DNA of 64,000 bases from Cyanophora paradoxa CCMP329 (GCA_004431415.1 QPMI01000130.1:1-64000), one strand, 5' to 3'; positions 1 to 19,257 are shown, counted from the first letter of the stretch. Made by a program: numbers and translations. The notes: generated from the sequence alone by a model not told the origin.

Positions 1-2
1 TT

Positions 3-583
3 TTAATGAGCGCCGCCACCAGGTCTCCGGTGCCGATGGTGGCGCGCTCGTGATGAGGTAGTTGGACATGTCGACGACGGGCACGGTCTTGCGCTTGCCC
101 GCCATCGTCTGGGTGCGGATGCGCATGTTGAGGTACTTGTAGAAGGCCTGGCCCGACTCCTTGTCGACCTTGATGCGCACACTGGGGGTCTGCAGCACCG
201 AGATCTGACCTTGGAGAGGGAGCGGCCGGGCGAGACCTTGAGCTTGGCCTGGTTCTGCTGCACGAACTCGCAGAATTTCGCGTCCAGGGCCTCCAGCAGC
301 TTGAGGAACTCGTCCGCGCTGGGTTTCGTCTGGCCGTCGACGGCGCTGAGATCGGTGAGGTCCAGCGTGTAAAATCCGCCGTTTCTTCCATGACGAAGGC
401 CTTCTTCTCGTCGCTCCACGCCTTGCCTTGCTCTGTGTTGATGCACGGGTTGATCGTGACCATGGGCGGCGCGTACATCATGAGGCCCTGCAGGCCGTCG
501 TACTTGGCCTTGATGCGGCGGTGGCGTCGATCTCGAAGGCGAGCTTGGCGGGTCGATCTCGTTGGCGTTGCGGACGTGGCCAT
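3..583 (-). CDS. Probable viral ssDNA-binding protein (OB-fold, NCLDV/T7 gp2.5-like); several frameshifts; probably truncated at window edge
   Basis: Stitching frames from ATG 583 gives ..VRNANEIDP..KLAFEID..RIKAKYDGLQGLMMYAPPMVTINPC..GFYTLDLTD..EFLKLLEALDAKFCEFVQQNQAKL..QTPSVRIKVDKESGQAFYKYLNMRIRT..VPVVDMSN. This resembles the layout of viral SSBs, recognised by eye. Confidence 0.5.
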   Translation of the reverse strand, partial: MATSATPTRSTRQARLRDRRHRRIKAKYDGLQGLMMYAPPMVTINPCINTEQGKAWSDEKKAFVMEETADFTRWTSPISAPSTARRNPARTSSSSCWRPWTRNSASSCSRTRPSSRSRPAAPSPRSDLGAADPQCAHQGRQGVGPGLLQVPQHAHPHPDDGGQAQDRARRRHVQLPHHERATIGTGDLVAALI

Positions 584-693
584 GTTTGCGTTAGCTTAGA
601 GTGTGCTCAGCCTAGCGCTAGAAATATTTAAGGGCGCCCCACCGACTTCAGCTGACCTCGGGTGAGCGCTCAGGTGATTCAGTAAAACACGTT

Positions 694-958
694 TCAATTC
701 ACCATCAGATCCTCTACGACGGCTACACGAATCGAGCTAATCTTGACCTGCCTACAATGCACTTCTCTCTCCACAGTACGATCTCGTTCTTGAGGGGAGC
801 AGTTGAATCCAATCATACTCATCGCCCTTGCGGTGCTCCGACGAAATGTCGCGAAGGAGCTTGCAGAAGTAGAACGTGTTTCGGTCGAACTCATCGTCGT
901 ATATGACGTATGCGAAGATGCGAAGGTGAGACAGCAGGTGAAGTACGTGGGGATGCAC
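694..958 (-). CDS. Small hypothetical viral protein (likely frameshifted near 3' end)
   Basis: ORF 752-958 MHPHVLHLLSHLRIFAYVIYDDEFDRNTFYFCK has protein-like composition and sits in the gene-dense segment. Confidence 0.4.
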
Positions 959-1084
959 ATTCTTGATTTCTCTTGGCTTTGAAGTGTGAGGAGAGGGCGC
1001 GGCGGGGCTGCGGTTTTGAGGCCGTTCAGGTGAGGGTCAGGTGAGCGCTCAGCTGAGTTTCAGGTGAGGGCAACTTGAAAATTC

Positions 1085-1137
1085 GGCGTCATTTACGTCC
1101 GCGTCATTTACGTCAGCGTCATTTACGTCACGGAGTG
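1085..1137 (+). repeat. 3 tandem copies of the 15-bp unit GCGTCATTTACGTC(A/C)
   Basis: Directly visible. The same unit recurs at ~1953-1985 and inverted at ~2283-2316 and ~2493-2525. Confidence 0.9.
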
Positions 1138-1218
1138 GGACTCGCCCTGGCCCCCGGCCCAGGCTCGCCCGTAAAAAGGACTTGGACTTGGCGCCATTTT
1201 CTAAAGCTCTGCTGTACC

Positions 1219-1602
1219 ATGGAGCCCGCTATCTCCCAGCTAGTCTCTCAGGGCGCCAAGCTCGACAAGGCCCTGAACATCTACCTTCAGCTGATCGAGC
1301 TGGCCTGGCCCGAGCCAATGATAGCTCAGGCCTGCAAATCGCTCCACGTGGCGTTCGATGCGCCGTTCTCAGGTGACCCGGATCAGGTGACATCCTGGAC
1401 CAAGGAGGAGATAAAGGCCGACTTCGAGGCGCTTTTCTCATTTATGAGCAAGAAGTATGCCGAAATCGAAGCAGCTAAGGCCTCAGCAGCCGAAGGCGGT
1501 GAAGCCCCAGCCGAAGGCCCTGCCGGCGACCAAGGCACCGAAGTTCAAGGCGCTGGGCCCCTTGCAGAGGGCGAAGGCCAAGGCGGACCTGCGACCGCGT
1601 AG
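1219..1602 (+). CDS. Hypothetical viral protein (may continue via frameshift to ~1873)
   Basis: ATG 1219 (MEPAISQLVSQGAKLDKALNIYLQLIELAWPEP...) is preceded by TTTTCTAAAG at 1197. Confidence 0.55.
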   Translation: MEPAISQLVSQGAKLDKALNIYLQLIELAWPEPMIAQACKSLHVAFDAPFSGDPDQVTSWTKEEIKADFEALFSFMSKKYAEIEAAKASAAEGGEAPAEGPAGDQGTEVQGAGPLAEGEGQGGPATA

Positions 1603-1864
1603 GCCCAAGGACATAGCCAAGGAGGCAAGCGGCCACAGGCCGGACTGGCCGGCGCCGGCGCCCTACCGCTACCTCAAGCTGGACAAGAGCAACGATACCG
1701 GCTTCACCAGGAGGAGGTGGCCTGAGCCCCTCAGGTGGCTGGAGCAAGGGAGATCAAGTCCGGAGGCGTATCGAGCTAGCGCTAGCGCTGGGCGGCGGCG
1801 GCGGTGCAGACTTGGAGGAGCAGGCCCTGCTAGATACCATCAACTTGGGCAAGGTAGAGGCTGT

Positions 1865-2530
1865 GATATCTAGCTAGCTAGCGCTTGCTTAATTAACTCA
1901 ACTGAAGTTACCTGACATTTACCTGAAGGGTTGCGGAGGTTACCGAAGGGTCGCGTCATTTACGTCAGCGTCATTTACGTCACGGAGTTTGCCGGCGACT
2001 CGGGACTCGGGCCCAACTTCTCCCGTAAGTTCGAGACTTGGAAAAATAGGGTATCCCTATTACTTATCGTTATTATTATTACTATTATCGTTATTCACAT
2101 TGAATGAATGCTTAAATCTATAAAAGCTGTACCAGTATCGGTGGCTACTAGTACTAAGCTAGTAGTACTAAGTAGTACCAAGTAGTACTAAGTAGTACTA
2201 CGTAGTACTAGCGGTACTAGTAGCTACTGGTCGTGACGAACTTACCGGGAGAAGTTGGGCCGAGTCCGAGTCGCCGGCAACTCCGTGACGTAAATGACGC
2301 TGACGTAAATGACGCGACCCTTCAGGTTAATTAATTAAGCAAGCGCTAGCGCTAGCTAGCTAGATATCGATACCACCTAGCTAGTAGCACTAGGACACTA
2401 GGACACTAGGACACCGGGGGTACCCCCGCCGAGTTCAAGTCTCGAACTTACCGGGAGAAGTTGGGCCCGAGTCCCGAGTCGCCGGCAAACTCCGTGACGT
2501 AAATGACGCGGACGTAAATGACGCAAATCC
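1865..2530. repeat. Large imperfect inverted repeat (~1865-2033 vs ~2237-2368) around an AT-rich spacer, plus a further inverted arm copy at ~2436-2525
   Basis: Arm GGGTCGCGTCATTTACGTCAGCGTCATTTACGTCACGGAGTTTGCCGGCGACTCGG..CCCAACTTCTCCC..TAAGTTCG and its reverse complement. The spacer has TTA runs and ~10-bp TAGTACTAAG tandem units. Confidence 0.9.
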
Positions 2531-2592
2531 CATTGGAGCTACGTTCGCACACTCCGGACGCCTCCCACAATTTTCCAAGGTACCCAGCAAGC

Positions 2593-2880
2593 ATGGACTT
2601 CACCGATTGCGCAGGTATCAAGCAGGAGCCTGAGGACCTTCTCACCGCCGCCGCCTCGGCGCCCAAGCAGCGCCGCCGCCGCGGGCCCAAGTCCCTCTGC
2701 TCCGAGCCCGAGATCCTGGCGGCTCCGGCGCGCGGGCCGGAGACCGTGGACCTGACCCTGGAGGAGCCGGCGCGCGGCCCGCCGCGCCTTCTGATCCTTG
2801 CGGCGGCGGCGGCCGCGCTCTACTACGCCGCCCGGCGCCTGGCCCGCAGCTCTCGGGCCTGGTCCGGAACCTTTTCTAAG
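2593..2880 (+). CDS. Small hypothetical protein with C-terminal hydrophobic segment (true stop uncertain, likely frameshift)
   Basis: MDFTDCAGIKQEPEDLL...LLILAAAAAALYYAARR, preceded by AATTTTCCAAG. Confidence 0.45.
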
Positions 2881-2890
2881 TCCCTCCTCA

Positions 2891-3232
2891 ATGGAGGCCC
2901 TGCTAGATCTCATGGCCTTTGCGCTGCCCATCTTCTTCCTGGTGGGCCTCAGCCGCATGGAGCGCGAGGCGCGCCAGCCCGAGCGCGTCGAGCGCGGCCT
3001 CACCCCCGCAGAGCAGCGCAACCTCACCGAGTGGGACCTGGCGCTCATGGCCGGCCGCATGCTCGACGGCAACCGGCTCGAGCCGGGCCACCGCCTCAAG
3101 CTAGAGGACGGCGGCACGGCCCTCTGGGACGGCGAGGCCTGGAAGCACGATTCGACGGGCGAGCCGATGAAGCTGCTCGCCTCCGGCAACAAGTACTGGC
3201 GCGGCGACTCGATGGAGTTCCGGCGCCCGTGA
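2891..3232 (+). CDS. Hypothetical viral protein with N-terminal TM/signal anchor (113 aa)
   Basis: MEALLDLMAFALPIFFLVGLSR...; upstream TTTTCTAAG; clean ORF. Confidence 0.65.
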   Translation: MEALLDLMAFALPIFFLVGLSRMEREARQPERVERGLTPAEQRNLTEWDLALMAGRMLDGNRLEPGHRLKLEDGGTALWDGEAWKHDSTGEPMKLLASGNKYWRGDSMEFRRP

Positions 3233-3280
3233 TTGCTAGTGATTTTCTGGTCCCTCTTCTAACCCTTCTACCAGCAAAGA

Positions 3281-3565
3281 ATGCCCGACCCCTCGCCCGA
3301 CCCCGCCGCAGGTGCCGAGAGCGCGGGCAGCTCGGACGAGTACTCCGAGCTCACGGATCCCGACCCCGACGAGCCCGGCGACGCCTTCGCGACGGAGAAC
3401 GAGCGCTCCCTCATGCGCGTCTACGAGGCGCTGCGCGAGGCGATCTACTGGGAGGATCCCCGCCTGGGAACCCTGATGAACTTTGCAAAGTTCGCCGAGT
3501 TCATGTTCGCTATGACCGTGCCCTTCACCCGAGTCGTGCTCTGGGATAGGAACAGGAACTGGTAA
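3281..3565 (+). CDS. Small acidic hypothetical viral protein (94 aa)
   Basis: Acidic N-terminus followed by ENERSLMRVYEALREAIYWEDPRLGTLMNFAKFAEFMF, reminiscent of small conserved algal-virus proteins (by eye only). Confidence 0.65.
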   Translation: MPDPSPDPAAGAESAGSSDEYSELTDPDPDEPGDAFATENERSLMRVYEALREAIYWEDPRLGTLMNFAKFAEFMFAMTVPFTRVVLWDRNRNW

Positions 3566-3592
3566 AGGCATTGAATACAACAGTACAGAGCC

Positions 3593-3967
3593 CTACGAGC
3601 TAGAGCTGCTATCGCCCGAGTCCAGGCGCGCCTTCTTGGCCTTGGAGCGGCGGAGGCGGGAGACGTACTGCAGGCGCAGGTTGCGCACTAGGAGCTCGCC
3701 GGCCGTGGTGCCCGGCAGCCCGGGAACCGAGTCCGTGGGCAGCAGCTGTCCCTCGCGTATCGCCTTGTACGTCTTGCGCTTGTTGAATGCAACCTTCTCC
3801 GTATCCTCCGCGACCGGGACTTCCAGCGCCAGCGTGCGCTTGGCCTTCTTGACGGAGACTGCGTTCGCACGCTCCAGCTTCACTCCGGGCTCCAGGGGGG
3901 TAGGGGCGACTGCGTTCGCCACCGGGTTCTCAGCGAAGGAAACACGGGGGGAAGAGCCGCCGCGCAT
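3593..3967 (-). CDS. Basic hypothetical viral protein (124 aa)
   Basis: Clean K/R-rich ORF with upstream TATTTTCTAAAG on the minus strand. Confidence 0.6.
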   Translation of the reverse strand: MRGGSSPRVSFAENPVANAVAPTPLEPGVKLERANAVSVKKAKRTLALEVPVAEDTEKVAFNKRKTYKAIREGQLLPTDSVPGLPGTTAGELLVRNLRLQYVSRLRRSKAKKARLDSGDSSSSS

Positions 3968-3979
3968 GGTTCGCTCGCT

Positions 3980-4381
3980 TTACCTAGCCTTTAGAAAATA
4001 GTCGAGCTGGGCGCTCTGCAGGCGCGCGCCCTGGTAGGCGCCGCGCAGCTGCCACGCGAGCCAGATCGCAAGGAGCACCGCGGCGACGCCGGCGGCGATC
4101 TTGGCGTAGTGCCAGCCCTTCATCGCAAGCTCCGGCACGGCCGCAACCGCCTGCCCGACCTTCACGCCCGCGGCGCCCGTCCGATCGATTCCCGTCAGCG
4201 TGCTGCCGAGTGCGCCCGCGGCCACGTCGGCCCAGGGAAGCTTGCCGTCGTTCTTTAGGATGAGCTCGTTGTTCTTGCGCTCGATCGTCGTGCTGATCGC
4301 CGCGGCCAGGTTGAAGCTCGGCGGCGGCTGCGCGCTCTTCGGTCCGAAGACCTTGGTCAGCACGGCGTCCACCCAGCCCAT
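3980..4381 (-). CDS. Hypothetical membrane protein (133 aa, MG start, C-terminal TM)
   Basis: MGWVDAVLTKVFGPK...IAAGVAAVLLAIWLAWQLR; upstream TTTTTCGAAG. Confidence 0.65.
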   Translation of the reverse strand: MGWVDAVLTKVFGPKSAQPPPSFNLAAAISTTIERKNNELILKNDGKLPWADVAAGALGSTLTGIDRTGAAGVKVGQAVAAVPELAMKGWHYAKIAAGVAAVLLAIWLAWQLRGAYQGARLQSAQLDYFLKAR

Positions 4382-4407
4382 CTTTGACCTAGACTTCGAA
4401 AAACTAT

Positions 4408-4886
4408 CTAAATGACCAGGCCGCGCAGGTACCAGACCATCAGGAGCGAGCCGCCCAGCGCCACCAGCAGCGGCAGGTGCCCGTCCACGGCGCGCCGCAT
4501 GCGGTTGTCGCACAGCTCCTGGCAGCTCAGCCGGTTGGCCTCGTCGAAGTAGGCGCTCACGGCGTAGGGGCGGTCGGCCGGCGGGTGCAGCCCCCGGCCC
4601 AGGCACGGGTAGGCCTCCGCCTGGCGCCGCGCGGCCAGCGCCGCCGTCGCCGCGTGCGCCGCCTCCCTCTGCCCCGGCGCGATCGCCACGAGGGGCAGCG
4701 CCCCCACGCTCCTGCCCTTGCCCGCCCCCTTGATCGTTTTCAGCGACGGCGGCGCGGGATCCGCCGCCTTCACCCTGGCCCCTCCGCCGCCGCCCCGCCC
4801 TTAGCCCTCGCCGCCTCGCCGATCTTGCTGCATCGCGAATCCGATTTGAACACGGTGCACAGCAGCTTCTCTACCGCGCTCGACAT
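4408..4886 (-). CDS. Hypothetical Cys-containing protein with C-terminal TM (one frameshift)
   Basis: MSSAVEKLLCTVFKSDSRC... joins ORF 4408-4773 ending SCQELCDNRMRRAVDGHLPLLVALGGSLLMVWYLRGLVI. The 479-nt span implies a 1-nt indel. Confidence 0.55.
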
Positions 4887-4981
4887 CTTCGAACGTGTAA
4901 CGAGAATGAAGAAAATTTAAAAGGGAACGCCAACGGACTCGGAACTCGGAAAAGGGGGAGGGGAGAATGAACTTTGAAAAG

Positions 4982-5170
4982 TTAGCGCCCGGCGGGGCGC
5001 ATGCCGGCCGCCGCCTGCGAGGCGCCGCCGGGGGCGTAGAGGGACTTGGCGGCGTAGCCGAAGCCCACGCCTATGACCGCCGAGGCCGTGGGGGTGCCGC
5101 CGAGGAGCCAGGTGAGGGTCGCGGCCAGCGCTCCTAGCGAGTAGTGGGCAGGATAAGCTTCGAAGGCCAT
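4982..5170 (-). CDS. Small hydrophobic membrane protein (62 aa)
   Basis: MAFEAYPAHYSLGALAATLTWLLGGTPTASAVIGVGFGYAAKSLY; upstream TTTTTTCTCAA. Confidence 0.6.
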   Translation of the reverse strand: MAFEAYPAHYSLGALAATLTWLLGGTPTASAVIGVGFGYAAKSLYAPGGASQAAAGMRPAGR

Positions 5171-5219
5171 CGCGGGACCGAATTGAGGGAGGGTTGAGAA
5201 AAAATACCGCCTCGGGGCC

Positions 5220-6480
5220 TCAGTGGTGCAGGTGCCGGAAGCGCGCGTTGTCCTCGGCCTCCTCGCGCGCCGCCTGCTCCTCCGCCGCGTCGATCTCCGC
5301 CCGCGAGGCCTCCCGCGCCGCGGCCGACGCGTAGTCCTTGAGCACGGGCACGCGCCGGTAGCTGTAGCCGAGGCCCTTCGCCAGCCCGCCGACTCCGCCT
5401 CGAACGCCCGCCAGCGCTCCGAGGCCTCCGCCCCGGCGATCTGGCCGGCGCGGAAGCCGGAGTCCAGCTCGGCGCGGAAGGCGATGGTGGCCTGCAGGCG
5501 CTGGGCCCAGAGGGCCTGGCGCCGCTCCTCCGCCTCGCGCGCCTGGCGCGCCGCCAGCGCCCGCCGCTCGGCCTCCTGCTGGGCCCCGAAGCCCTGGATC
5601 GCGGTGAGGACGGCGCCGGGCCGGGGAGGGGCTGGGGCCGTCGGCGCTCGCGGAGGAGGCCGAGCTCCCGTAGCCGCTCGGGCCCGCGCCGCCGTTCGTC
5701 GGGTACCCTGCCCTTGGATCAGGAGGGGGGCGGGGGAGGGGGGTACGGGAGGGAAGGCGGGGGTACGCGGGCCGGACCTGGCGCGGCAGCATCTCGTCGA
5801 TGCGCTGCTGGCCGGGCGCTGCTGGGGGGCCGTGGCGGGGGGCTGGGCGGGAGGAAGGCCGGCGCCGAGTTGCGGGTGCGCTTGCCCTTGCCCTTGGTGT
5901 GGGGCTTGACGAGGAAGGGCCCGACGTCGGGCGCCGGGTCCTTGAACTGGGCGACGGGGATCGCGATCGCCTCCAGCGCCGGCTGGCTCTCGCCGAGGGA
6001 GAGCGGGGCCTTGGGACGATGCCGCGGATGTAGGTCTGCCAGACGCCGCCGAGCTTGTAGGAGTAGGGCGGCACCAGGAGCCGAAGCCGGCGAGGGTCTC
6101 GTCCAGCCGGCCGTTCTCGATGTCGGCGCCGACGGCGGCGGAGGTGTCGGGGCCCTCCGTGCGCGCGATGTACTCGACGATGCCCGCGACGCTCGTCATG
6201 TAGCCCTCCGTGTTCGGGGCGGCGACGTAGGTGGTGGGGTCGACGGCGCAGTGGGCGATGATGAAGCGGGTGAGGGGACAGGAGGCCGTCTCCTGCCAGA
6301 AGCCGAGGCGCTTCTCCCGCAGCCACACCGGCTCGAAGGCCTGGATGCAGGAGGCCTGGCGGCCACCTGCGGCGCGGGCGACGTTAGCGCGTACGACGTC
6401 GGGACGGGCGGGGAAGGTGCGCGGCTTCGAATCCAGCGGCTCCCCGCGAAGCTGCCTGCGGCCCAGTGAGCGTGCTGCGA
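5220..6480 (-). CDS. Hypothetical viral protein with C-terminal coiled coil; multiple frameshifts; start uncertain
   Basis: Protein-like segments alternate between minus frames: WLREKRLGFWQETASCPLTRFIIAHCAVDP.., YSYKLGGVWQTYIRG.., AQQEAERRALAARQAREAEERRQ.., ARFRHLHH*. Confidence 0.5.
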
Positions 6481-7510
6481 GCGGGAGGTGGGAGGGATTG
6501 GGCGGGCGGGCCTGCGTCCAGCGCTGAAACGTAGCTCCACTGATGCTATCCGCGATGCGCGTAGCCCGCGACTGGCCGCGGACAAGGGAGGGCTTAGCTA
6601 GGACAAGAACGGGTGTGGGGCGCGGGGCTGGAGGCGCGGGGAGGCGAGCCGGAGCCGCCGAATCGATGCGCGGGCTTGAGAACGAGATCTAGAAGCGTGC
6701 GCAAGTCGCCGCGAACGTCGGCTCGAGTTGCGGAAGGCGCGGCGGCCAATCTCGGCACCTGCTCAGAGACCAAATGTCAGCGGACGCGGGCGAATCGAGC
6801 GCGAGGTTGCGGGGCATGTTCTAGGTGCTAAATGCAAGGGATAGAGCGGCAAGAGAGCGAGCTGGCACCTGCGGGATGCGGCGGAGTGCTCCGGCTCGGG
6901 CGCCATCGAGCTTTCGAAGGTCCGCGGCCGGCGCGAGCGACCCTGCGCGTGGCGGCGTGAGTGCGGCGTCGAGAGAGCTTTCCAGCGCCCAAAATCTGAG
7001 GTCCGGAGCTAGCCGTGGTGCGGAGAAAGAGGTTGCGAAGTGAGGCGCACCTCCGAATCGAAAGGAGCGAGGCGGCGGCTCTCCGGGCTGAGCGGAATGC
7101 AAGCTAGTGCCTCTGGCAAGTGCTGCAAGGAGCGCTGGGCCCGGGCGCTGCGAGATGCGCTGCCCGGGCGCTTTTTTTCGGGTTGGGTACTGTGTTTTGA
7201 GTCGAAACACGTGGAGCAACCGCGTGAGCCCAAAACTTTCTGAGCTTAGGAGCAAAGGCGGTCGAGCGCTCGGCCGCGCAAGCTAGCTCCGGCGCGCTCT
7301 GCCTTCTCTCTACACGTGTCGCATTCACGTGCGCTCAAAACTTTCTAAGCTTCGGTCAAGCAAGGGGCTAGCGCTTCCGAAGTTCTACGCGCGCGCCTCC
7401 CCGTCCGCCGGGCCGACGGTCTGCGCGTCACATCGTCCGCTGCGCCAAGAAGGAGAGATCAAGACGGTGTCAACCGGGTCTAGTTGAGCGCTTAAGGTCG
7501 GACCAAAGCC

Positions 7511-7560
7511 TGTCCCGACCCTCCCAGATCTTTAAATTAATATCTCAGAAGGTCGAGACA
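7511..7560 (+). repeat. 50-bp imperfect palindrome (copy 1), upstream of helicase
   Basis: TGTCCCGACCCTCCCAGATCTTTAAATTAATATCTCAGAAGGTCGAGACA. Confidence 0.95.
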
Positions 7561-7650
7561 GCAGTCCAGACGTCGACTATAGCTAGCCAACAGACGTTGA
7601 CTAGCCTAGTAGATCTAGAATTTTCCAAGCCTAGCTATAGAGAGACGACC

Positions 7651-10600
7651 ATGGCAACCGGACGCGTGTCTCTCGACGTCGACGCCTTCCTGGCCCGTAT
7701 GCCCGGGCCCGGGTACAGCAGATAGATCTGAGCGAGCAGGAGTGCAGCTTTTTCGTTCGATTCCCTCTCGTCGAAGTCCAGAAGGCCTGCAGCCCGACCC
7801 TGGGGACGGCTTTCTGCGTCTTCCACCCGCCCTGCATCACCCCAGCCACTTCTCGGGTGCCGAGGATGAGACGAGCACCGCGGCAGCCTGCGCCTTTGCA
7901 ACCAAGTTCGGAGGCTTCACTTTCTCTCGCCCCTTGGATAATGGATTCAAGGCTGCCTACGTCCTACAGAGCCCGGAGGCTTGCGATCTCATGGCATGGT
8001 TCTTTGGGAGCTCGAGCGGCCTGGAGCTCGGTGTGGATGGCACGGGGGCTACGTTCTGCGGGGGCCGGCGCCCGGGCCGCGAGCGGAGCTCCTCCCCACT
8101 CCATCCAGAAGCTCGGCGCCCCGCGCTAAGCCCATCCCGGAGCCGGGCGCTCTCCTGGATTCGAGCCCAAGCCTGCCGGCCTTGGAGCGGCTCCTGGACC
8201 GCCTACGCAAGAACAAGGCGGTGAGGGACGAGATCTGGAAGGCGGGGCAGAGCTGCGCGCGGACCTTGGCCTGCACGACGCCCGCCGCGTTCAGCACCTT
8301 GGAGTCGAGCCCGACGGGTCCATCACCCTCGTCCTGGGCGGGAGTCAGCCGGGGGCGCCGGCGGCTCGAATCTCCATCCAGGCGCACGGTATTGAAGTCG
8401 AGCTCGAGGGGAGGGACCGGAGGGAGTCGGGCAGCGTGGCACAGACCCGCTATGTGACCGATCCCTCGCAGCCTGTCGCCTTCGACATTGCCCTCCCTCC
8501 CTCCTGATCGCGCTCGAGTCGACGGGCCTGGAGGCTTGCGTCAATGCAGTGGATGAACGCCACCTCTCGTGCAAGATCCTTACCTCCGCATTCGGGGCGC
8601 TGGAGCAGAACCCGAGATCCGCTCAGCCGCAGGTCGACGTCATCTGCTCGGGACTCAACACGGGGAAGACGCAGGCGCTGATCGATGCGTACCTGGACCC
8701 GGCCCTCGCAGGCGGCTGGCGAGTGATCCTCGTGACTTGCCGCCGGGCCTTCTCCCGCGACCTCAAGCGTCGCATTGATGCTGCGGAGTTGTCAAAGGAC
8801 GCCGTGCTTTACATGGACATCAAGAAGCCACCGGAGAGCTCAAAGGGATCGCATGGCAAGTGGGGCTTCCGCCATGAGGAGTGCAGGTGCGTCGTCATCA
8901 CATGGGACTCGCTGCACAAGGTGCTCGAGGACTGGGAGGGCTGGTCGACGGCGCCGCTACTGGTCGTGCTGGACGAGCTCTCCTCCCTCACGAAGCACCT
9001 CACCTCGAGCGGCACCCTCGAGCCCACCGGCCTGCACCTAGGTATGCGGTCAGTGCCTCGAAACGCGCGCTGCGTGGGCCTATGGCGCGGCGTGATGAAG
9101 CATCGCGCATCGTGGCGATGGACGGCTTCGTTCGGTCGGTCGATCTCGCGTACCTGGCAGAGTCGGCGCAGGAGGTCGGGGCGCGCCTGGGGCTCCTGTA
9201 CAACTCGCATCGCACCTGCGACTGGAAGATGCGCGTGTCAGACAGCCCGGCGCACGTCGAGGCGGACATCATGGTGCAGTGCCGACCTGGGCGCTCGCGG
9301 GCCATGATCATCGCGGAGACGCCGGCCAAGGCGATCGAGCTGCAGGAGAAGATTGCGAAGCAGGCGCTGGAGCAGCTCAGCCTGGGCGGCGCTCAGTACG
9401 TGACTCAGCTCGAGGCAGGGCCCGAGGACGGCAGCGGCGCACCGTTCACGATCGGGCTCATCGTTGGGCAGGCCAAGGAGAAGAGCGTGCGCTTCACGAA
9501 CGAGGGCCCAGTGCGCATCGTGTCGATCGATGTGTCTGAGGAGGGCGCGTACAAGGCCTGCGACGTGCTCATCGCAACTTCCGCGCTCGGGGCAGGCGTG
9601 GACTTTTCGGACGCGCACTTTGACAAGGTCTACGGCGTGTTCCAGGCGGAGCCCGCGCAGCTGGAGGCGGACGACATCGTGCAGCTGCTGTTTCGAGTCA
9701 GAAGGCTGCGCAAACGCAGCACGCCCGACGGGGAGCACCTGCTCGTCGCCGTGCGCAAGAACCGGACGCCCTCGGTTGCGGTCGGCGCGGCGGCTGCGCA
9801 CTGGCGTGAGAGCGACGACGACGAGAGCTCGGACGACATGCAGCGCTACCTGGACCTGAAGGCTAGCCACCGCGGGAGCCGCCGCGCCGGCATGCCCACT
9901 CGGCGCCTCGCAGTGGCAGCGCGCCTGCGGCTGATGTCGACCTGCGCGCTGATGAACGTGCAAGTCACGGAGGATCAAAACCCGAGCGGACCGAAGCAGG
10001 AGAAGGAGCAGCGGCTGCGCGAGATCAGGAGCGTGCTGGAGGCGGGCGCGCTGGAGCCCGTCGATCTGTGGAGCACGGTGCTGGCCTGGAGGCAGTCCCG
10101 CGAGTCTCTCGCTAAGCTGGACATCGAGAAGGTTGCTTCGCTTGCTCGCACGTCGATCGCCGCGTTCCTGGCCAAGGATCCGAGCGAGCTGACCGAAGGA
10201 GACGTCGCCTGGATGTGGGATTCGTTCTACTCCATCCCGCTCACTGCCGTGGTCACGCTGGTGCTGAAGCATGGCGCGGACGTTGCCGAGATCGTGCCTA
10301 CTGCTGAGCGCCTCAAGGTATCGAAGGTCGTCGCGCTGTTCAAGAAACTCTTCGGCTGGCGGGGGTATGGAAAGCTCGCGGGGCGTGCTCTGTGGTCGGA
10401 CGAAGCCTACGCGGCCCTGGCGTCGCCGGAGGGTCGGGAGGCGTACGCGGCTCTGCAGAGTCTGGACGAGCGCGCGCCCCGCTTCGATGCAGCGGACGGT
10501 GAGAAGAAGCGGCTCTCGCAGCAGTCTTGGCAAGTCATCAAGTACCTGCTGGAGAAGTACCTCGGAGTGAGACGCGCTTTCTCCGACGCGGACGGAGGGC

Positions 10601-10764
10601 AAATGGGCAGCCGAAAGCGACGCTACATCACGTGGGAGGAAGACATGCTCGACGACGCAGTAGAGCGCCAGGCTAAGCAGGCAAGGGCAGGCATGGCGCC
10701 AAGCTTCCCAGAGGTTTACAACGTTTTCTCCGACTGCTATGCTCTCATTCACAGGCGCGTGTGA
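7651..10764 (+). CDS. UL9/origin-binding-protein-like SF2 helicase with long N-terminal extension; frameshifted in 5' half
   Basis: Walker A VICSGLNTGKT, VILVTCRRAFS, ITWDSLHKV, Walker B LVVLDELSS, IVAMDGF, VLIATSALGAGVDF..HFDKVY and VQLLFRVRRL. This motif series is typical of the Herpes_ori_bp-like family. Split between ORFs 8549-9307 and 8881-10764. ATG 7651 follows AATTTTCCAAG. Confidence 0.85.
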
Positions 10765-10865
10765 TTGTCGGATGTCACAGTGTGGACTTCGCGAACGGGA
10801 TGCGCGTGCCAGTGTGTAAATACGAACGTGCGAATTCAAGTGACGTCATGCATATGATCAATGAA

Positions 10866-10915
10866 TGTCTCGACTTTTTGAGATATTAATTTAAAGATCT
10901 GGGAGGGTCGGGACA
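10866..10915 (-). repeat. 50-bp imperfect palindrome (copy 2), inverted relative to copy 1
   Basis: Reverse complement matches 7511-7560 at 48/50 positions. An additional half-site TGTCCCGACC lies at 10956. Confidence 0.95.
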
Positions 10916-11193
10916 TTGCGAGGGCGGACGAGAGTGAGGGCATGCACTCTCTATGTGTCCCGACCTTTTCTGAACAACTCATGATTGCCGTATCATCGAT
11001 CTGCATTTACTCACTTCGTTCTCTGTCGCTTGCACATGCGCGGTGTGGGATTACTAATTAGATCTAGTCTCCCTAGCCCTCTGCGGCCGCCTTCCTGCCC
11101 CCCTGCAAAGAGCAGCTCAACCAAATCCTGTGGGTCTGATTCATTGCAGACTCGCCTTCCCCGCCTGGGCCTGAGCTACACCAAGCTACGGTG

Positions 11194-11459
11194 AGTCCGA
11201 CCAAGAGACGTGTCCGGACCCTCCCTACTTTCTTTATAGATTATTGGAAAGGTCCGGACACTAGAGGAGGGAGGGCGTACATAAGTAGTCTGACCAAGAG
11301 ACGTGTCCCGACCCTCCCAGATCTTTAAATTAATATCTGAGAGGGTCGAGACACTAGAGGAGGGCGTACATAAGTAGTCTGACCAAGAGACGTGTCCCGA
11401 CCCTCCCAGATCTTTAAATTAATATCTGAGAGGGTCGAGACACTAGAGGAGGGCGTACA
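11194..11459 (+). repeat. Three tandem ~89-93 bp units, each containing the 50-bp palindrome (11211-11260 divergent, 11304-11353, 11393-11442)
   Basis: Unit GTCTGACCAAGAGACG-[palindrome]-CTAGAGGAGGGCGTACATAAGTA, directly visible. Confidence 0.95.
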
Positions 11460-12108
11460 ACTTAAACTCGCGCAGCGCCGCCTGCTCCTCGCTGAGGTTC
11501 TCTGACTTCATTCGATCGCTGTAGGGCTCGGGCGGAGTTCCAGCCTTCACGTGCGACCAAAATAGATGTAAGCACCGCCGCATGAGCTGAATGTACCTCT
11601 CGTCCCGTCTGACGTACCACGTTCGCACGCGCAGAGGCGTGAAGCAAAAAAGTTCGGCCCACTCGCGGCCCGTTATGTCTAAAAGTCCTTGCAGCTGCGT
11701 CATGTAATAGGTAGGAACCTTGTCGTAGAGTTCTTGTTTGTACGGACATTTTATTTCGAGTATGCGATCGTTTCCGATTAGCCCGTCCGGGCTCCCCGCC
11801 AGGAAGGGCAGTTCCTTATGTTCGTGCAATCCAGTATGTTGCACGTCCACGTTATTGTTCAACGTTTTGTAGAGAGAGACCGCGAAGGGCTCATAGTCAT
11901 GCCCGTAGGTTAGGGCAGGGTTGTCAAAGTTGTTTTCCTCCGCTATCCCGCTTAGCTCCGCCCACAGGCGGGCCCTGGATTTCCAGGGGTTTATACCGCA
12001 CGCAGCCGCAAAATTAGATGCAGTTAGTTTTTCACGGCGCGCCGCGTGCCACGCCGCGCTCCCCTGTTGTAAGTTCTCGCAAGTCTCGCAATCTGTATCG
12101 GTATGCAT
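11443..12108 (-). CDS. YqaJ-like viral recombinase / lambda-type alkaline exonuclease (221 aa, intact)
   Basis: QGSAAWHAARREKLTASNFAAACG, YGHDYEP, GSPDG, LEIKCP and YYMTQLQGLL are the canonical YqaJ PD-(D/E)xK motifs. Confidence 0.93.
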   Translation of the reverse strand: MHTDTDCETCENLQQGSAAWHAARREKLTASNFAAACGINPWKSRARLWAELSGIAEENNFDNPALTYGHDYEPFAVSLYKTLNNNVDVQHTGLHEHKELPFLAGSPDGLIGNDRILEIKCPYKQELYDKVPTYYMTQLQGLLDITGREWAELFCFTPLRVRTWYVRRDERYIQLMRRCLHLFWSHVKAGTPPEPYSDRMKSENLSEEQAALREFKLYALL

Positions 12109-12158
12109 AGCTTAGCCTCGCAGTAGCGTTTAGAATTTCTTGATGTGTGCGAATGCAT

Positions 12159-12888
12159 ATGTCTGATAATCAGACTACCCTCCCACCGCTATCGGGGTAC
12201 ATCCGAGATTACACTAAGCAGGTAAACGGGCTGATCGGCTGGGTGAAAGAAGAGATCCCCAATACAATGCGAGACGGGGGCATGGCTGCGACGTATTTGC
12301 GCGATGTGGCACGCAGAGGCCTCGGGTCCAGGGTAGACATCCGAACGTATGAGCCGCCGGTGTACGAAATCGAACACAGGGACGACATGGGCAGGGTTCG
12401 CGATGAACTTCGCAAGCTCTGGTGGGCGTTCGGCTCGCGCAAGAGCCCCATGACCTACCTGCCCAAGACGTTCAGAGAGTTATACTGGATCTCTTCCTGA
12501 ATGCGGGCACTCGCACGGAGATCATCAATCGCCCGCTCAATATTTTGAAGCACTACTTCCAAGGCTTCGTTCACCACGCCAAAAACAAGGAAGATGAATG
12601 GGTGGTACCCTATGTCCCCCATCGGATTTGATCCCTGAAGGATGGGACGAAGAACAAGACAATATGGAAGAACGGTTCAAGAGATACAAGTATAGAAAAC
12701 TGACGCCTGCCGGCCCACCGTACGGCCCACCGGCGCCCACGGCGGAGCAGCGCCAAGAGATACTGCGGGAGGGTCAGATTCGCAGGTGGATGGAGTACAG
12801 CAATGATCCGACGAGCTGGTCGCCAGACGAGGCCGAGCTGCGGAAGCGCGCGAGGCTGCCAGGCCCTCGATACCCCGACCGCGAGTAG
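12159..12888 (+). CDS. Hypothetical viral protein, paralog A (two frameshifts)
   Basis: Three overlapping ORFs (12147-12500, 12422-12631, 12598-12888) stitch into one protein containing LRKLWWAFGSRKSPMTYLPxDVQRVILDLFL. Confidence 0.55.
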
Positions 12889-12922
12889 GGGTACAGGTAT
12901 AAATTCTCACCGAGCCGCGAGC

Positions 12923-13488
12923 ATGGCGCGAACACGCGAGTCCGACGTGCTGTACAACAACGGCGACCTGGACGGGGAGATTCGACAGCGGAACGTGGAC
13001 TTGGAGGATGCGAACGCAGTGCTGGAGGGGAGGCGCACGTCCTCAGGGGGCGGCTCGCCGGCGGAGAACTTCATGGAGCGCGTGCTCTACCTTGTGCGCT
13101 GGATTAGAGACGAATTCCACGACGAGCGAGAGCTCCCGGACAGGGAGATGATCAGGGCCGCGGGCTTGATGGTATGACAGAGAACCCGAGATCGTACCTG
13201 AGGCGCGAACGCAGGGATCTGAACGGCGATTGGGCCGACCTGCAAGCGCTGTGGACGGCCTTTGCGAACCGCAAGAGCCAGATCCTTGCCCTGCCCGCGC
13301 AGGTACAGCAGCGTATCATTGATTTCGTAGCCCCCTGGCGCGACGAGTCCCTCCAGCAGCCATTCATGCAACCACGCTTCCTCTCCGGGCTCAGGAGCGC
13401 GTTCTTCCACTTGGCCGTGAGCAGCGACCGGTATTTCACACCGCAGAGGATCGTTCACGGCGAATTCGGCATACCCCCGAGTGGCTGA
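12923..13488 (+). CDS. Hypothetical viral protein, paralog B (frameshift or ATGA-coupled pair at 13174-13177)
   Basis: MARTRESDVLYNN... plus ...LQALWTAFANRKSQILALPAQVQQRIIDFV; upstream AAATTCTCAC. Confidence 0.55.
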
Positions 13489-14247
13489 ATTTTGCCACCG
13501 TACCCCCTTCCCCACCCCGCCTCGAAGGCCCCCCCTCCCCTACCCCCGAGCAGCGTGAGTCACTCAAGCGTCAGAGGGAGGTACGCGAATGGATGGACGA
13601 CACCAGCCACTGGGTACAGGGCGAGGCCGAATTACGCAAGTTCGGAAGGTTCGGGCAGTAACAGCGGGGGGTACAGCATTCAGTTAGAGCCTGAGCATCG
13701 TTAGAGGCCGGGAGGCCCCCCGAGGGGTACACCGGCTGTTACTCCCCGCGTCGGTTAGTGCTAGCCCCCCTGTTAGTGCAGCGTGTACCTGATCGCAATA
13801 TAACACCCAAACCTCCGCGACGCGTGACTCATGCAACCTCCGAGGGTTAACAATGCATTGACAGCGAAGGGGCAAGCTCGAGAGCTCAACGCTTCACAAA
13901 GGCCCACATATATATGCGTATGATCATGATCCCCAAATTTTCGAAGTTGCCGGGATGCGCAAGGGTACCCCAGCTGGCGGTAAACGTACATGCGCATGCG
14001 GCCGTCTCTGTTCGTAGCCGCTCTCTCGCCGGCGCATTCGCAGCCCCGCTTTCTCTCCTCGGCATTTGGCAGCAGCAGCCTCGGCGTTTGTCCAGCGCGT
14101 CGTGTTGCGTCGTCTTCGACGTCGACGCTTCCTGTCAACAAATCCAACTTCTTCTGTCAATCCGCGCGGCGGCGTTTTGGCGGCGCGCGATCTGCGGCAA
14201 AAGTTGCCGATTGCAAGTTGGACGCGCGGCAAAAGTTGCCGATTGCA

Positions 14248-15552
14248 ATGGCAGCAGCGGAGATCAGGCTGATTCCCATGTTCGAGGTAAGTAGTGAAGC
14301 TTGCCGAAAGGGGCGGCTTGGGTCGATCTGCTGACTGTTCTGTGCAGGACAATTACGCGTACCTCATTACCGTGATTTCTTTTGCTCGATGTCACATCTA
14401 TGAACAGCGCGACTCACGTTGGTGGGGCAGTGTGCAGTAACGAACGAGGCGGCCCTCGTTGACCCCGCGCAGCCGAAGGCGGTCCTCGAGGTGCTGAAGG
14501 CGGAGACGCGTCCAGTGCGCCTGACGACCCTCCTCACGACGCACAAGCACTGGGATCACGCGGGCGGCAACGAGGAGATGGCCCGCGCGATCCCAGGCCT
14601 CCGTGTGGTCGGGGGCGAGATGGAGGACACCCCCATCCCCGCGTGCACCCTCGGCGTCAAGGCGCGCCGCTCGGCCCTGCACCCCGCACTGCGCTGAGTC
14701 GGCCGCAGGAGGGCGACGTCGTCACCGTCGGCGCGCTTCGCTTCAGAGTGCGGCCCCCTGGCCCAGCCCGCGGCCGGACCGCGCCAAACAACGGCATAAG
14801 GCTCAACAACACTTGCAGGTTCTGTTCACGCCCTGCCACACGCGGGGCCACGTCCTATACTTCCTCGAGAACTGCTCCCCGCCGGCCCTCTTCTCGTGCG
14901 CCCCGCCGGCGGCGCGGCGCCTGCTCGGGCTGAGCGGGCAGCAGCGGTGACACGCTCTTCCTGGCCGGCTGCGGGCGCTTCTTCGAGGGGGACGCCGCCG
15001 ACATGCACCGCGCCATGTACGAGGCGCGCCGCCCCTCCCCGCCCTCGCCGCTCTCGCAGACCCCCCGCTCCCCAGGTCATCGGCCGCCTCCCGCCCGAGA
15101 CGGAGGTGTACTGCGGGTGCGCCCGGCGGGGCCGGCGGGACGGCGGGGCGCGCGGCGAGCGGGCGGGGGCGCAGGCACGAGTACTCGGTGAACAACCTGC
15201 GCTTCGCGGTGCACGTGGAGCCCGGGAACGCGGCGGCCGCGGAGAAGCTCGAGTGGGCCAAGCAGCAGCGGGCGGCGGGGCGGCCCACCATCCCCTCCAC
15301 CCTCGCCGAGGAGAAGGTCCGCCCGCCCGCCCCGCCCGCTCGCCCCGCGGCCGCGCGCTGCAGCAGCGGCCGCGCGCAGAGGTACAACCCGTTCATGCGC
15401 GTGCACGAGGAGTCCCTCGCCCGCGCAGTGAGGTGCGCGCCTCCCCGCCCGGCCCCGGGGCGCACGGGGGCGGGGCTGAGGCATGTGCCAGGGCGGAGGG
15501 GCCTGTCGCTGTCATGCGCGCCGTGCGCGCCGCCAAGGATGCCTTCAAGTAG
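14248..15552 (+). CDS. GLO2: Hydroxyacylglutathione hydrolase (glyoxalase II), ~10 exons
   Basis: Spliced [60 protein letters not shown] and KDAFK*. Confidence 0.93.
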
Positions 15553-16902: not shown

Positions 16903-19257
16903 ATGAACAAGTTTTTTTGGATCCGGGATACAGCAAACAGACCCGCCTCTCCTTCCCGCTCCAAGCAAGCGCAGAGGCCAGCAGCGCAGGCACTTCCCAG
17001 CAGCCATTTTCCAGCGCTGAACTGCTGCACCTCGTGCGACCCGGGCGACGTGCGGCTTCCCCCTCCTGCGCCCGCTCTCCGCCGGCCCCGACCGCTGGCG
17101 GGTCGCGCAGGAGGGCGTGCTGTGCGGCCTGCTCAACGCGCGCCCCGACCTCCGCCCGTCGGCCTACTTCAAGGTCCGTTCGCCCCCCCATGGCACCGCC
17201 AGCCCAGCCGCGCGCCCAGCCCGCCCCGCCAGCGCCCCTTCACTTCTCTCCCCATCGCCCCTTCCTTTTCCTCTTGTGATCCCCGGCCGCGGGGTCGATG
17301 GCGCAGAGCACCATCGTGGCGTTGAGCCGGGCCATTGAAGACGAAATCCTGGCTCTCTCGTCGAAGGAGGAGGAGTGGATGGTGATCGGCAAGTTCGGGT
17401 CGAGCGGGAACTTCCACCTGCGCGGGCGCGGGGGCATGCCGAAGGCGGCCAAGCTCGTCGACCGCCTCTACCTGCTGGAGGGGGAGGACATCGCGCGCGC
17501 CCCGAACGAGGCTGCGGCCGCCAAGGCCGGCTTCCACCACATCCCGTACTCGGCGGGCCAGATCCTGCCCCGCGAGTGGTTCTTCGTCGTCGTCTCGCCG
17601 AGCTTCACGGCCTGCGTGGTGGCCACGAAGCGGCGCGAGGACCCCATCGACCTTACCAAGCGCTTCGACGGCGTCTGGAGCCGCGAGCCGTCGGTGTGCG
17701 CGCAGGCGGCGCTCGTGGCGTTCGAGCGCCTGCGGGCGTACCGCCCGGACCTCTCCCGCCAGCTCGACGAGGACGAGGCCCGCTTCAAGCTCCGCGCCCG
17801 CGCCCGCCTCAGCCGCCGGACCAGCGCGGCCGAGTCGCGGCGGAGGCGGCAGGGGGACAGCACGGCGTTCGCGGAGCGGCTGGTGCAGAACATGACGGCG
17901 AGCAACTACAAGCTGGTGAAGCTGCTGCGGGTGCAGCAGGCGATGGCGAAGGAGCTCGACCGCTTGAACCAGGCCCGCACCAACTCCATGAAGATCATCG
18001 CCCACGAGCTCCGCACCGTCCGCCCCGCCCCGCCCCGCCCCGCCCCGGCCCGCGCGGCGGGGGCATGACGGGCCGGGCAGCCGCTGTCGACGATCCGGGT
18101 GTGCATCGAGAGCGCGGCGACGGAGGACCTGTCGAGCGGGGTGCAGGCGGCGATGGCGCGGACGGCGCTGGAGGACCTGGACCGCCTCTGCAAGCTCATC
18201 GACGACTTCTTCTTCCTCGACCAGCTCGAGCGCGGCGAGGTCGAGTGGCTCGTCGAGGTCCCCGCCCCGCCCCCCGCCGCCCCCGCCCCCGCCCCGCCCT
18301 CACGCCGCGCTGCGCAGCCGGTGTCGGTGCAGGAGTGCGTGCAGGAGGCGGTGGCGGGGGTGTACCGGCGGCGCGGCGCGGAGCGGGCGCTGCCGAAGAT
18401 CACGACCTCGCTGGACCTCGCGTGGCCCGTCGTGCGCGCCGATGGCCAGGGCCTCTCCCGCGTCCTCCACTCCCTCCTCGACAACGCCGTCCGCGCGCGC
18501 CCTCCCCCGGTCCCGCCGGCCCCGGCGACGGGGGCGGGGGCGGGGCGCAGATCAAGTTCGCGCCGGAGGCGGGCGGGGTGATCCGCGTGGCCTCGCAGAT
18601 GCGGGGGCGCGAGGTCGAGCTCGTCGTCTCCGACAACGGCTGCGGCATCGAGCCCGAGCTCCTCGACCGCGTCTTCGGTGCCCCGCCCCTCGGCCCCGCC
18701 CCCCCCCCCCCCCCCCCGCCCCCCCCGGCCCCCCGGCCCCCCGCCCCGCTCGCCGCCTGACGCGCCGGCGGCAGACCTGTACTGGCAGGAGGACGCGTAC
18801 CTGCGGCGGGCGGCGGGGGGCGTGGGGCGGGGCCTGCCGATCGCGCGGCGCATCGTGGAGTCGTTCGGGGGGCGCATCTGGGTGGAGTCGCAGGGGCGCG
18901 GCATGGGGACCTCGGTCCACTTCACGTGCGAAGGGCCCCTCCCGCCGCAGAGCAGCCGCTCACGCCGCCGCCGCCGCGCAGCTGCCCCTCGACATCACCC
19001 TCTCCATCCAGGAGGGCATCCGCGCCGCCGCCAAGGCCGCCGCCTCCCTCTCCGCCCCCGCCGCCCCGCCCAGGCCTCCCCGGCCCTCCACGAGGCCCCC
19101 GCGGCCACCGCGCGCCGGCCCAGGCGAGCGCCCCTGGACCCCGCCGTCGCCGCCCCGCGAACCCGGCGCTCCCGCGCGGCCCCGGCGCCCGCGGAGCTCC
19201 CCGAGGCCCCCCGCCGCCCCCGCCCGCCGCGGCCGCCGCAAGCAGGGCGTCGCCTGA
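16903..19257 (+). CDS. DICT-sensor histidine kinase of cyanobacterial type, multi-exon
   Basis: Exons 16903-17049, 17111-17173, 17307-18017 and on give VLCGLLNARPDLRPSAYFK|STIVALSRAIEDEIL..EWFFVVVSPSFTACVV..FDGVWSREP (DICT). H-box AHELRTPLSTI, N-box LLDNAIKF, G1 VSDNGCGI, G2 GVGRGLPIARRIVE. Confidence 0.85.

Follow-up and report, generated by a model that had tools for sequence, protein, structure and literature searches.

A recently amplified, virus-derived element in Cyanophora paradoxa, probably an integrated relative of the mriyaviruses

The first 13,914 positions of a 64,000-nucleotide stretch of Cyanophora paradoxa CCMP329 DNA (GCA_004431415.1 QPMI01000130.1:1-64000, hereafter the window) form the right arm of a repeated element, whose left part lies beyond the window edge. 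We regard as real that this element is virus-derived, integrated and recently amplified. With a probability of roughly six in ten, it is an integrated small DNA virus related to mriyaviruses, not a gamadvirus proper, which has likely spread to dozens of sites in recent times. The arm carries genes for a single-stranded DNA-binding protein (SSB), a UL9-type superfamily 2 (SF2) helicase and a YqaJ-like exonuclease, the genes from which a first reading of the sequence alone (the original prediction) had deduced an endogenous small DNA virus; all three are present.

The element ends on its right side in a short TA run (13,900–13,916, +), located by contig starts and diverging flanks. A contig starting at 13,887 continues through the host glyoxalase II gene in three of four DNA runs. 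It has single-copy depth (DNA runs of 2019 and 2024), its junction k-mers were found in three of the four DNA runs, and it carries only about 28–30 element letters, the bar for bridging being 31. Other copies leave the element at the same place: three contigs of run X17 diverge after 13,914 (61% agreement among them) and one contig of run X19 after 13,916, and beyond these points the flanks are unrelated sequence over at least 255 letters. Because several contigs exit at 13,914/13,916 into differing flanks, we take this to be the common right end of the family; the many copies, common end and different flanks of an integrated element were all found. The original prediction that a virus-derived stretch is integrated beside host genes was borne out, while its end at 13,700, ~0.7 kb before glyoxalase II, moves to about 13,914, 334 bp before the start of that gene. 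The glyoxalase II-like gene (14,248–15,552, +; Pfam Lactamase_B, E = 9.5e-07) is single copy and spliced, with intron joints in RNA runs, and was used as flank and depth control. The DNA of the window is eukaryotic and rich in GC, and from 14.2 kb on its genes are spliced.

The arm as a whole (1–13,914) lies on contigs 20–70 times as deep as the single-copy host contig. Helicase contigs reached 44, 45, 47 and 69 times the depth of the glyoxalase II contig in four DNA runs dating from 2012 to 2024, a ratio stable across these years. The SSB contig stood at 67–70 times the host in DNA runs and the 12.4–12.9 kb region at 20–22 times. The depth of short-read contigs is not a copy number; we read it as likely reflecting dozens of copies that differ in parts and, since it is uneven, as a sign that the copies are mosaic or partial. 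Element genes are spread over at least 52 differently named contigs, with SSB on at least 33, the helicase on at least 25 and YqaJ on at least 8. On at least 8 contigs SSB and helicase occur together, 4–11 gene models apart, and among the matches listed 5 of the 8 YqaJ contigs have helicase and YqaJ as direct neighbours. Seven intact full-length SSB models of 260 residues share 252–259 of them, and the family is likely a young repeat, recently amplified. Among the matches listed, 20 of 23 runs contain more than half of the words from 7.5–14.5 kb, with one organism throughout. What had been taken for a single insertion is therefore, by depth and by the number of contigs, one of dozens of copies, and the comparison of read depth with host genes that the original prediction proposed gave this 44–69-fold excess of helicase contigs.

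The frameshifts that interrupt several genes of the window are mostly assembly errors. In 12 of 70 indel rows, the short-read contigs have one base more than the window 11 times and one base less once, nearly always in four of four runs; in the right arm, five extra bases are common to the DNA run and RNA runs. A decayed pseudogene was ruled out, as short reads restore the frames.

The SSB gene (1–583, −) is frameshifted in the window, where short reads supply extra bases at five listed positions, and its 3′ part lies beyond the left edge. It was assigned from the cluster of P0050 (22 members), a viral profile and the ESM Atlas. P0050, an intact sister copy of 260 aa, scores 0.97 and 0.95 against Nucleocytoviricota clusters of the ESM Atlas, the second consisting to 61% of DUF5871; the recognition value stayed below the bar of the tool. 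A profile of 40 viral SSB homologs matches P0050 with E = 2.5e-24. P0050 also aligns end to end, at 31–32%, with a gene that mriyavirus-type contigs have between YqaJ and the A32 ATPase and that corresponds to the "Gamadviridae" SSB (PEV_26), these relatives being placed in the family by gene order only. The gamadvirus SSB has been reported as T7 gp2.5-like in PMC11253617. Judged from its predicted sequence, the protein is one of the SSBs of gamadviruses and nucleocytoplasmic large DNA viruses (NCLDV), and not an ICP8; the herpes ICP8/UL12/UL9 logic of the original prediction survives as an analogy only. The SSB gave no Pfam or PDB match, also with alignments of 5 and 28 rows, a phage search with a viral SSB homolog found nothing, and no close relative with genomic context turned up in viral contigs or metagenomes. 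A single-sequence AlphaFold model reached a pLDDT (predicted local distance difference test) of 34.6, too low to use. Two environmental contigs in ENA carry relatives of element proteins, P0052 (3,422 bp) an SSB at 88% identity and P0108 (1,912 bp) a YqaJ at 65%, so the lineage occurs outside culture. Loci retrieved with P0108 were rejected as relatives with context: they are phage-like and lack an SSB.

The YqaJ-like, lambda-type exonuclease (11,443–12,108, −; 221 aa) is unbroken. Pfam recognizes it with E = 1.1e-29, its catalytic columns SPDG and ExKCP are invariant, and a profile of gamadvirus-like YqaJ proteins matches it with E = 8.7e-51; the Pfam scan also gave Viral_alk_exo at E = 0.041.

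The third gene encodes a helicase of the UL9/R8/F1055L type (7,651–10,764, +), recognized by Pfam, profile search and motifs, of ~1040 aa counting the short-read bases. Contigs across it are nine bases longer than the window, which makes 7,651–10,764 a multiple of three (1,041 codons); from these net nine added bases, one of them at a displayed position, we infer an open frame. Pfam Herpes_ori_bp matches at 8,396–9,304 (+) with E = 7.1e-07, over the curated cut-off, and the conserved SF2 motifs align with those of relatives that score E = 1e-13 to 1e-37 on this family. A core search returned 13 proteins among 6,777 candidates, namely the window's own and 12 named ones at 52–99% identity, all from one proteome labelled Cyanophora paradoxa. 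Within this proteome P0009, P0011, P0012, P0029 and P0013 make up at least two further helicase subfamilies (~52% and 70% identity), and the alga thus harbours several related families of elements side by side. Searching 1.84 billion representatives with a helicase profile returned 19 matches; 11 were scanned, nine of which match Herpes_ori_bp or PriCT_2, one of these nine also AEP_C962R. No primase domain was detected in the N-terminal 300 aa with a profile built from seven relatives (best E = 0.41) or with hhalign, while in leave-one-out controls all seven relatives scored E = 0.016 or better. The N-terminus had no usable ESM Atlas match. An AlphaFold model from 19 rows had a pLDDT of 43.5, and Foldseek with this low-confidence model returned a mixture of SF2 helicases, from NCLDV, herpes origin-binding and RNA-virus proteins, which we did not use as evidence. 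Neither the helicase searches nor a search for the hairpin pattern described below found a close relative with genomic context. The closest helicase outside Cyanophora in the profile search was P0119 (a Logan contig of 16.9 kb), which is frameshifted and covers motifs I–III. P0118 was discarded as a repeat-protein artefact, and weak helicase-profile matches near YqaJ in loci L072 and L088 proved to be phage ResIII-type helicases.

The YqaJ alignment was run against IMG/VR, which gave 489 confirmed loci; the best 80 were kept, and 99 loci entered the comparison. An SSB homolog is encoded in 41 of the 99, all within the best 80 YqaJ loci (tblastn to E = 1e-22). A32 and VLTF3 accompany it in 40 of the 41, and an NCLDV capsid gene lies within the fetched stretch in 17; a Pfam check of L024 and L039 was done alongside this family assignment. 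The viral gene order is RuvC, capsid, YqaJ, a small gene, SSB, ATPase and VLTF3, which is also the order that Table 1 of PMC11253617 shows for Pleurochrysis endemic virus 2. On the strength of this order we take the SSB-bearing loci to be gamadvirus-like, the isolate being compared by order only. Near position 2,860 of one of them, L063, stands a long perfect palindromic hairpin with a stem of more than 30 bp. Three of 24 viral family profiles match the element: those of SSB, YqaJ and, weakly, a 94-aa open reading frame (ORF) at 3,281.

The element and the viral contigs also share a promoter-like motif, TTCT(A/G)A. The pattern W-W-T-T-C-Y-M-A, picked by eye from the same starts and thus post hoc, occurs within 45 nt upstream of 7 of 13 chosen starts, compared to 1.2% of random windows and none of 2,000 shuffles. 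Eight of its ten occurrences in the element sit 19–32 nt before an ORF start, one of them previously unlisted. The motif precedes 17% of 439 genes in gamadvirus-like loci, against 1.2% of random windows. In these related, non-independent loci the ATPase gene has W-T-T-C-T-R ahead of it in 32 of 40 cases and the capsid gene in 12 of 18, mostly 18–28 nt upstream. W-T-T-C-T-R-A was seen 18–28 nt before the ATPase, the capsid and several structural genes in L020–L066 and L093. No promoter is described for gamadviruses in the accessible part of PMC11253617. The affinity to small NCLDV relatives proposed in the original prediction thus gains support from an SSB and a promoter-like motif common to mriyavirus-type contigs.

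Among known systems, the closest in these respects are the "Gamadviridae" or NCLDV-like dwarf viruses (Pleurochrysis endemic viruses, Phaglo-G; Mriyaviricetes), the name NCLDV-like dwarf viruses being introduced in 10.1101/2022.07.28.501842. Measured on metagenomic contigs assigned by gene order, the likeness comprises full-length SSB homology, a YqaJ-like PDDEXK nuclease, the weak 94-aa match, the upstream TTCT(A/G)A and the absence of a visible DNA polymerase. Mriyaviricetes are marked by an NCLDV double jelly-roll capsid, A32, VLTF3, RuvC, HUH and VLTF2, the lack of a DNA or RNA polymerase and a genome of 35–45 kb, and also by a PDDEXK (YqaJ-like) nuclease and an SF3 or SF2 helicase that forms the C-terminal portion of a multidomain protein; of these, the arm seen has the nuclease and a UL9-type SF2 helicase C-terminal to a 300-aa N-terminal region. 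Gamadviruses have an SF3 helicase (SF3_hel2), whereas that of the element is SF2; their SSB and YqaJ genes are two genes apart, compared to 11 kb in the element; and the element has dozens of integrated copies with a sharp end. Gene-end hairpins are repeated in the element and occur 0–1 times in six of seven gamadvirus-like loci. The helicase itself resembles the Yaraviridae SF2_hel, mimivirus R8 and African swine fever virus pF1055L, all UL9-related SF2 helicases of ~1,050 aa with the same motifs, but these keep, at the N-terminus, an intact primase domain of the archaeo-eukaryotic (AEP) kind that was not detected in the element. With the herpesvirus UL9/ICP8/UL12 set, the likeness is one of principle, an origin-type SF2 helicase, single-strand binding and the alkaline exonuclease family; the 260-aa SSB is of NCLDV/gamadvirus type, no herpes virion gene is seen, and the element's repeats pair best on one strand instead of forming double-stranded dyads. 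A herpesvirus or mirusvirus affinity was rejected, as no gene supports it.

Several points weigh against an integrated relative of the mriyaviruses. Profiles of capsid, A32, VLTF3 and RuvC found nothing in the window, off whose left edge the element runs, and those of A32, VLTF3 and RuvC found nothing among 144 fetched proteins either. At E below 0.05, 21 of the 24 viral family profiles had no match, and general Pfam and PHROG scans of 28–29 window frames returned no HUH, VLTF2 or integrase family. The tree of YqaJ proteins is a further point. A quick tree of 91 rows placed the Cyanophora YqaJ as sister to the gamadvirus-like clade, weakly (SH-aLRT, a Shimodaira–Hasegawa-like likelihood ratio test, 88), and a careful tree of 52 rows, from which 13 long-branch rows had been dropped and in which 14 of 40 clade members were kept, placed it outside that clade with no resolved sister; in both it lies outside the 100/99 clade. 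The YqaJ search alignment had included two clade members (P0111, P0113), and NCLDV SSBs were left out of the SSB comparison, so that the status of nearest relative is only putative. SF2 helicases with an intact primase are reported from a subset of Yaraviridae and SF3 helicases from gamadviruses (PMC11253617); the helicase of the element is neither. The depth that is uneven between parts (20–70×) also counts here, as does the lack of integration genes in mriyaviruses, integrases being carried by mriyavirus-like groups of 20–30 kb, according to 10.64898/2026.06.19.733378.

We predict that capsid and packaging genes lie to the left of the window. PMC10120064 counts 366 capsid genes for C. paradoxa, which fall into two unnamed clusters, and lists six examples, one of which is a double jelly-roll capsid gene at 8,432–9,370 on tig00020936 whose best match is an ascovirus capsid (its Table S2). 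The SSB copy P0072 corresponds to gene model g16183 on this very contig. If numbering runs contig by contig, tig00020936 holds at most 33 gene models (neighbours g16160 and g16194). This linkage is weak: it rests on one contig name of six, and in an assembly that we take to have ~700 contigs it would arise by chance about once in four times.

As the original prediction had stated, no capsid, packaging ATPase, polymerase or integrase is visible: no DNA or RNA polymerase was found in the 13.9 kb of arm seen, nor, in Pfam and PHROG scans, a Preplasmiviricota-type capsid or ATPase, an integrase or a tyrosine recombinase. The main rival explanation starts from this absence of virion core genes. The element would be a mobile assembly of replication genes taken from viruses and lacking a capsid, either like a transpoviron or a large transposon of viral derivation, which spreads in the genome or rides helper viruses; the helicase between its inverted 50-bp repeats is maybe a mobile cassette of its own. 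The uneven depth agrees with it, and so does the description of repeat-bracketed replicase modules and transpoviron-like elements, one of them on an element bearing the prefix of the C. paradoxa assembly, in 10.64898/2026.10.13.758929. We nevertheless consider it unlikely. Several small ORFs look membrane- or virion-like and follow the motif that precedes viral capsid and ATPase genes; SSB, helicase and YqaJ are kept together on many contigs; one SSB copy shares its contig with a capsid gene; and the hairpins pair better on one strand, like transcript ends, and also follow YqaJ.

Slightly less likely again is an endogenous Polinton-like virus or virophage-like element, of Preplasmiviricota type or intermediate (Zoravirus/VC134/VC218), that acquired SSB and YqaJ and is transcribed via a giant virus. 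Such elements also form many young, mostly intact copies in protist genomes, as described in PMC10120064 and, for endogenous mavirus-like elements (EMALEs), in PMC8547959. The latter gives a TCTA core in AT-rich context as the late promoter of CroV (Cafeteria roenbergensis virus) used by mavirus, and type 4 EMALEs carry a TCTA-type upstream motif. The 366 capsid genes in unnamed clusters, the integrases of the 20–30 kb groups and the 3′ hairpins that end Mimiviridae transcripts (PMC4402537) would fit as well. The arm seen, however, is without pPolB, SF3 primase-helicase, retroviral integrase or tyrosine recombinase. Mriyavirus-type contigs are themselves enriched for this motif, the capsid listed on the shared contig matches an ascovirus best, and spliced, abundant RNA occurs in runs without sign of an added helper, the metadata of the runs being off record. 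A giant virus genome fragment captured once and multiplied passively by segmental duplication is very improbable: the three families, SSB, YqaJ and UL9-type helicase, are all known from Nucleocytoviricota, and giant-virus-derived regions are reported in C. paradoxa (PMC12344493), but the copies are nearly identical and mostly intact, and their exits into unrelated flanks coincide to within two to three bases, while the host gene adjacent to the arm is single copy. Least credible is an assembly chimera in which an episome or co-cultured virus was wrongly joined to host DNA, since, although the junction contig falls short of the 31-letter bar, the same contig at single-copy depth recurs in three DNA runs (2019, 2024), the depth ratio is stable over years and the genes lie on at least 52 differently named contigs.

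An integrated virus related to mriyaviruses is therefore the reading that we retain. A further-reaching version of it is possible and rather doubtful: the family may be a distinct branch of small Nucleocytoviricota relatives that, in contrast to the mriyaviruses described so far, integrates and multiplies transposon-like in a glaucophyte; its proviruses, numbering dozens, intact and in part transcribed, would replicate with a UL9-type helicase lacking a primase and an SSB–exonuclease pair, and would be inducible to the first glaucophyte virus particles. We know of no isolated glaucophyte virus. If a young, intact and partly expressed family does reside in a cultured alga, then replication, promoter use, integration and induction become directly testable, and for the gamadvirus-like group the shared upstream motif offers a promoter that can be tested; should the family be capsid-less, it would be a large mobile element derived from a virus, with an unusual set of replication genes. 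Mriyaviruses are proposed as the closest living relatives of the giant-virus ancestor, almost all of them are metagenomic and their replication mode is a guess (PMC11253617). The "possibly undescribed lineage" of the original prediction calls for qualification. No published account of the family's gene content, copy number, promoter or hairpins was found in a search that left most subscription journals outside. Viral genes have, on the other hand, already been reported for the alga or its class: besides the 366 capsid genes, Mriyaviricetes-related regions in a Glaucocystophyceae assembly (10.1101/2025.04.19.649669) and Polinton-like virus fibre proteins for C. paradoxa (PMC12220804). In the text available, PMC6704402 gives unknown repeats as 11.5% and the word virus is absent, and 10.64898/2026.06.19.733378 treats mriyavirus-like groups without mention of Cyanophora.

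From mriyavirus biology and the gene families, a recombination-dependent replication model is plausible. A host polymerase would copy the genome in the nucleus, which is the proposal made for mriyaviruses, as these have none of their own. The UL9-type helicase would open the DNA, perhaps at an inverted-repeat, AT-rich block at 1.9–2.5 kb, SSB would coat single strands, and the YqaJ exonuclease would resect ends for strand annealing or invasion, leading to circles or concatemers. For mriyaviruses, by contrast, rolling circles started by HUH have been proposed. Genes would be read from a W-T-T-C-T-A-type promoter 19–32 nt before the start, probably a late one because the motif precedes capsid and ATPase genes in viral relatives, and helicase and YqaJ transcripts would likely end in hairpins. 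The block (1,865–2,524), detected by repeat analysis, is built of inverted repeats nested within one another, with arrays of TGACGTAAA, and encloses an AT-rich core. Its 73-nt arms (1,953–2,025/2,452–2,524) are 99% identical and its 45-nt arms 100%, and it is a candidate origin or enhancer. The TGACGTAAA arrays presumably resemble bZIP/as-1 sites. An opposite-strand joint, 1,859–2,384, at ~30 times single-copy depth in four of four DNA runs, suggests that this segment is flipped in many copies.

The hairpin is a 52-bp repeat in five copies (starting at 7,510, 10,864, 11,210, 11,303 and 11,392), found by repeat analysis. Copy 1 (7,510–7,561, −) is inverted relative to copy 2 (10,864–10,917, +), which lies 100 nt past the helicase stop, the pair bracketing the helicase; the other three belong to 89-bp tandem units, each with a hairpin, directly after the YqaJ stop (11,194–11,459, −). 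In four of four folded variants, one strand is more stable as RNA by 7–13 kcal/mol, because mismatches turn into G-U pairs on that strand only; for this reason double-stranded UL9 dyads were rejected. The stabler strand is the sense strand after both the helicase stop and the YqaJ stop, where the hairpins are likely transcript ends, as far as folding tells. The copy at 7,510 faces away from the helicase and is left unexplained by transcript ends; a role in single-stranded DNA is possible.

Some copies appear to be transcribed. Two introns (12,457–12,514 and 12,856–12,910, −) belong to a minus-strand transcript heading to YqaJ. The joint 12,456–12,515 was seen in two of three RNA-like runs and 12,855–12,911 in three of three, and as these CT..AC joints are absent from the DNA run we take them to reflect a spliced minus-strand transcript, the RNA status of X15, X17 and X19 resting on skipped host introns. 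YqaJ contigs had depths of 148, 3,635 and 3,260 in X15, X17 and X19, compared to 13.7, 21 and 17.5 for the host gene, contig depth being a poor measure of expression level. These RNA contigs differ from the window at 1–9 letters per 112–176 and therefore come from sister copies. Viral-derived genes in C. paradoxa are enriched for repressive methylation (PMC12344493), so most copies may be silent. The original prediction had counted ~15 intronless, compact ORFs; compactness and number hold (about 16), whereas the two GT-AG introns, antisense to a plus-strand ORF, do not agree with intronless. Copy number, sharp end, the hairpins on either side of the helicase and the common promoter motif had escaped the original prediction.

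Besides those of helicase and YqaJ, 26 further frames gave no Pfam match at the curated cut-off. A small ORF directly upstream of SSB (694–960, −), frameshifted here, is fused to SSB in gene models P0051, P0059 and P0077. A 127-aa ORF following the shared motif (1,219–1,602, +) has no Pfam or PHROG match. The start of a small ORF with hydrophobic C-terminus (2,593–2,880, +) was set from the promoter motif and is the same in gene models P0095, P0097, P0103 and P0105. It is followed by a 113-aa ORF with hydrophobic N-terminus (2,891–3,232, +; a cluster of 15, of which 14 are named, all C. paradoxa) and by the 94-aa ORF (3,281–3,565, +; cluster of 11), by position perhaps PEV_34, whose weak match to the mriyavirus-type family has E = 0.013 among 1,126 sequences and E = 0.0007–0.005 among 144. 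A basic ORF of 124 aa (3,593–3,967, −) shares a cluster of 13 with the adjacent 133-aa ORF (3,980–4,381, −), which from its sequence, with an MG- start and hydrophobic C-terminus, is likely a membrane protein. The 124-aa ORF starts with R-V-S-F, in agreement with the RVxF phosphatase-docking motif, possibly by chance. Frame analysis gave an ORF with hydrophobic C-terminus and uncertain start (4,408–4,830, −), and the motif a hydrophobic one of 62 aa (4,982–5,170, −). A proline-rich, coiled-coil-like ORF (5,220–6,400, −), also of uncertain start, is frameshifted here with short-read insertions at two listed places and matches no Pfam, PHROG or viral profile family. Right of YqaJ, short-read contigs support R1 (12,153–12,900, +) and R2 (12,923–13,661, +), each ~245 aa when read through breaks with X. 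R1 shows a weak resemblance to R2 (E = 0.002), likely its paralog, and another to the beginning of P0025 (E = 2e-5).

Beyond the element, no Rfam family or tRNA was found in a scan of the window. A histidine-kinase-like host gene with DICT and CHASE6_C sensor domains lies at 17,000–19,250, and its first 370 bp recur inverted at 36,223–36,574 with 91% identity. A perfect 39-bp inverted pair encloses about 5.2 kb (27,947–33,121) that take in 105-bp and 141-bp tandem arrays. We consider this a likely non-autonomous DNA transposon. Low-GC islands (45–54%) at 19,900–21,900 and 53,000–57,000, with no Pfam match in the frames scanned, are probably other repeats.

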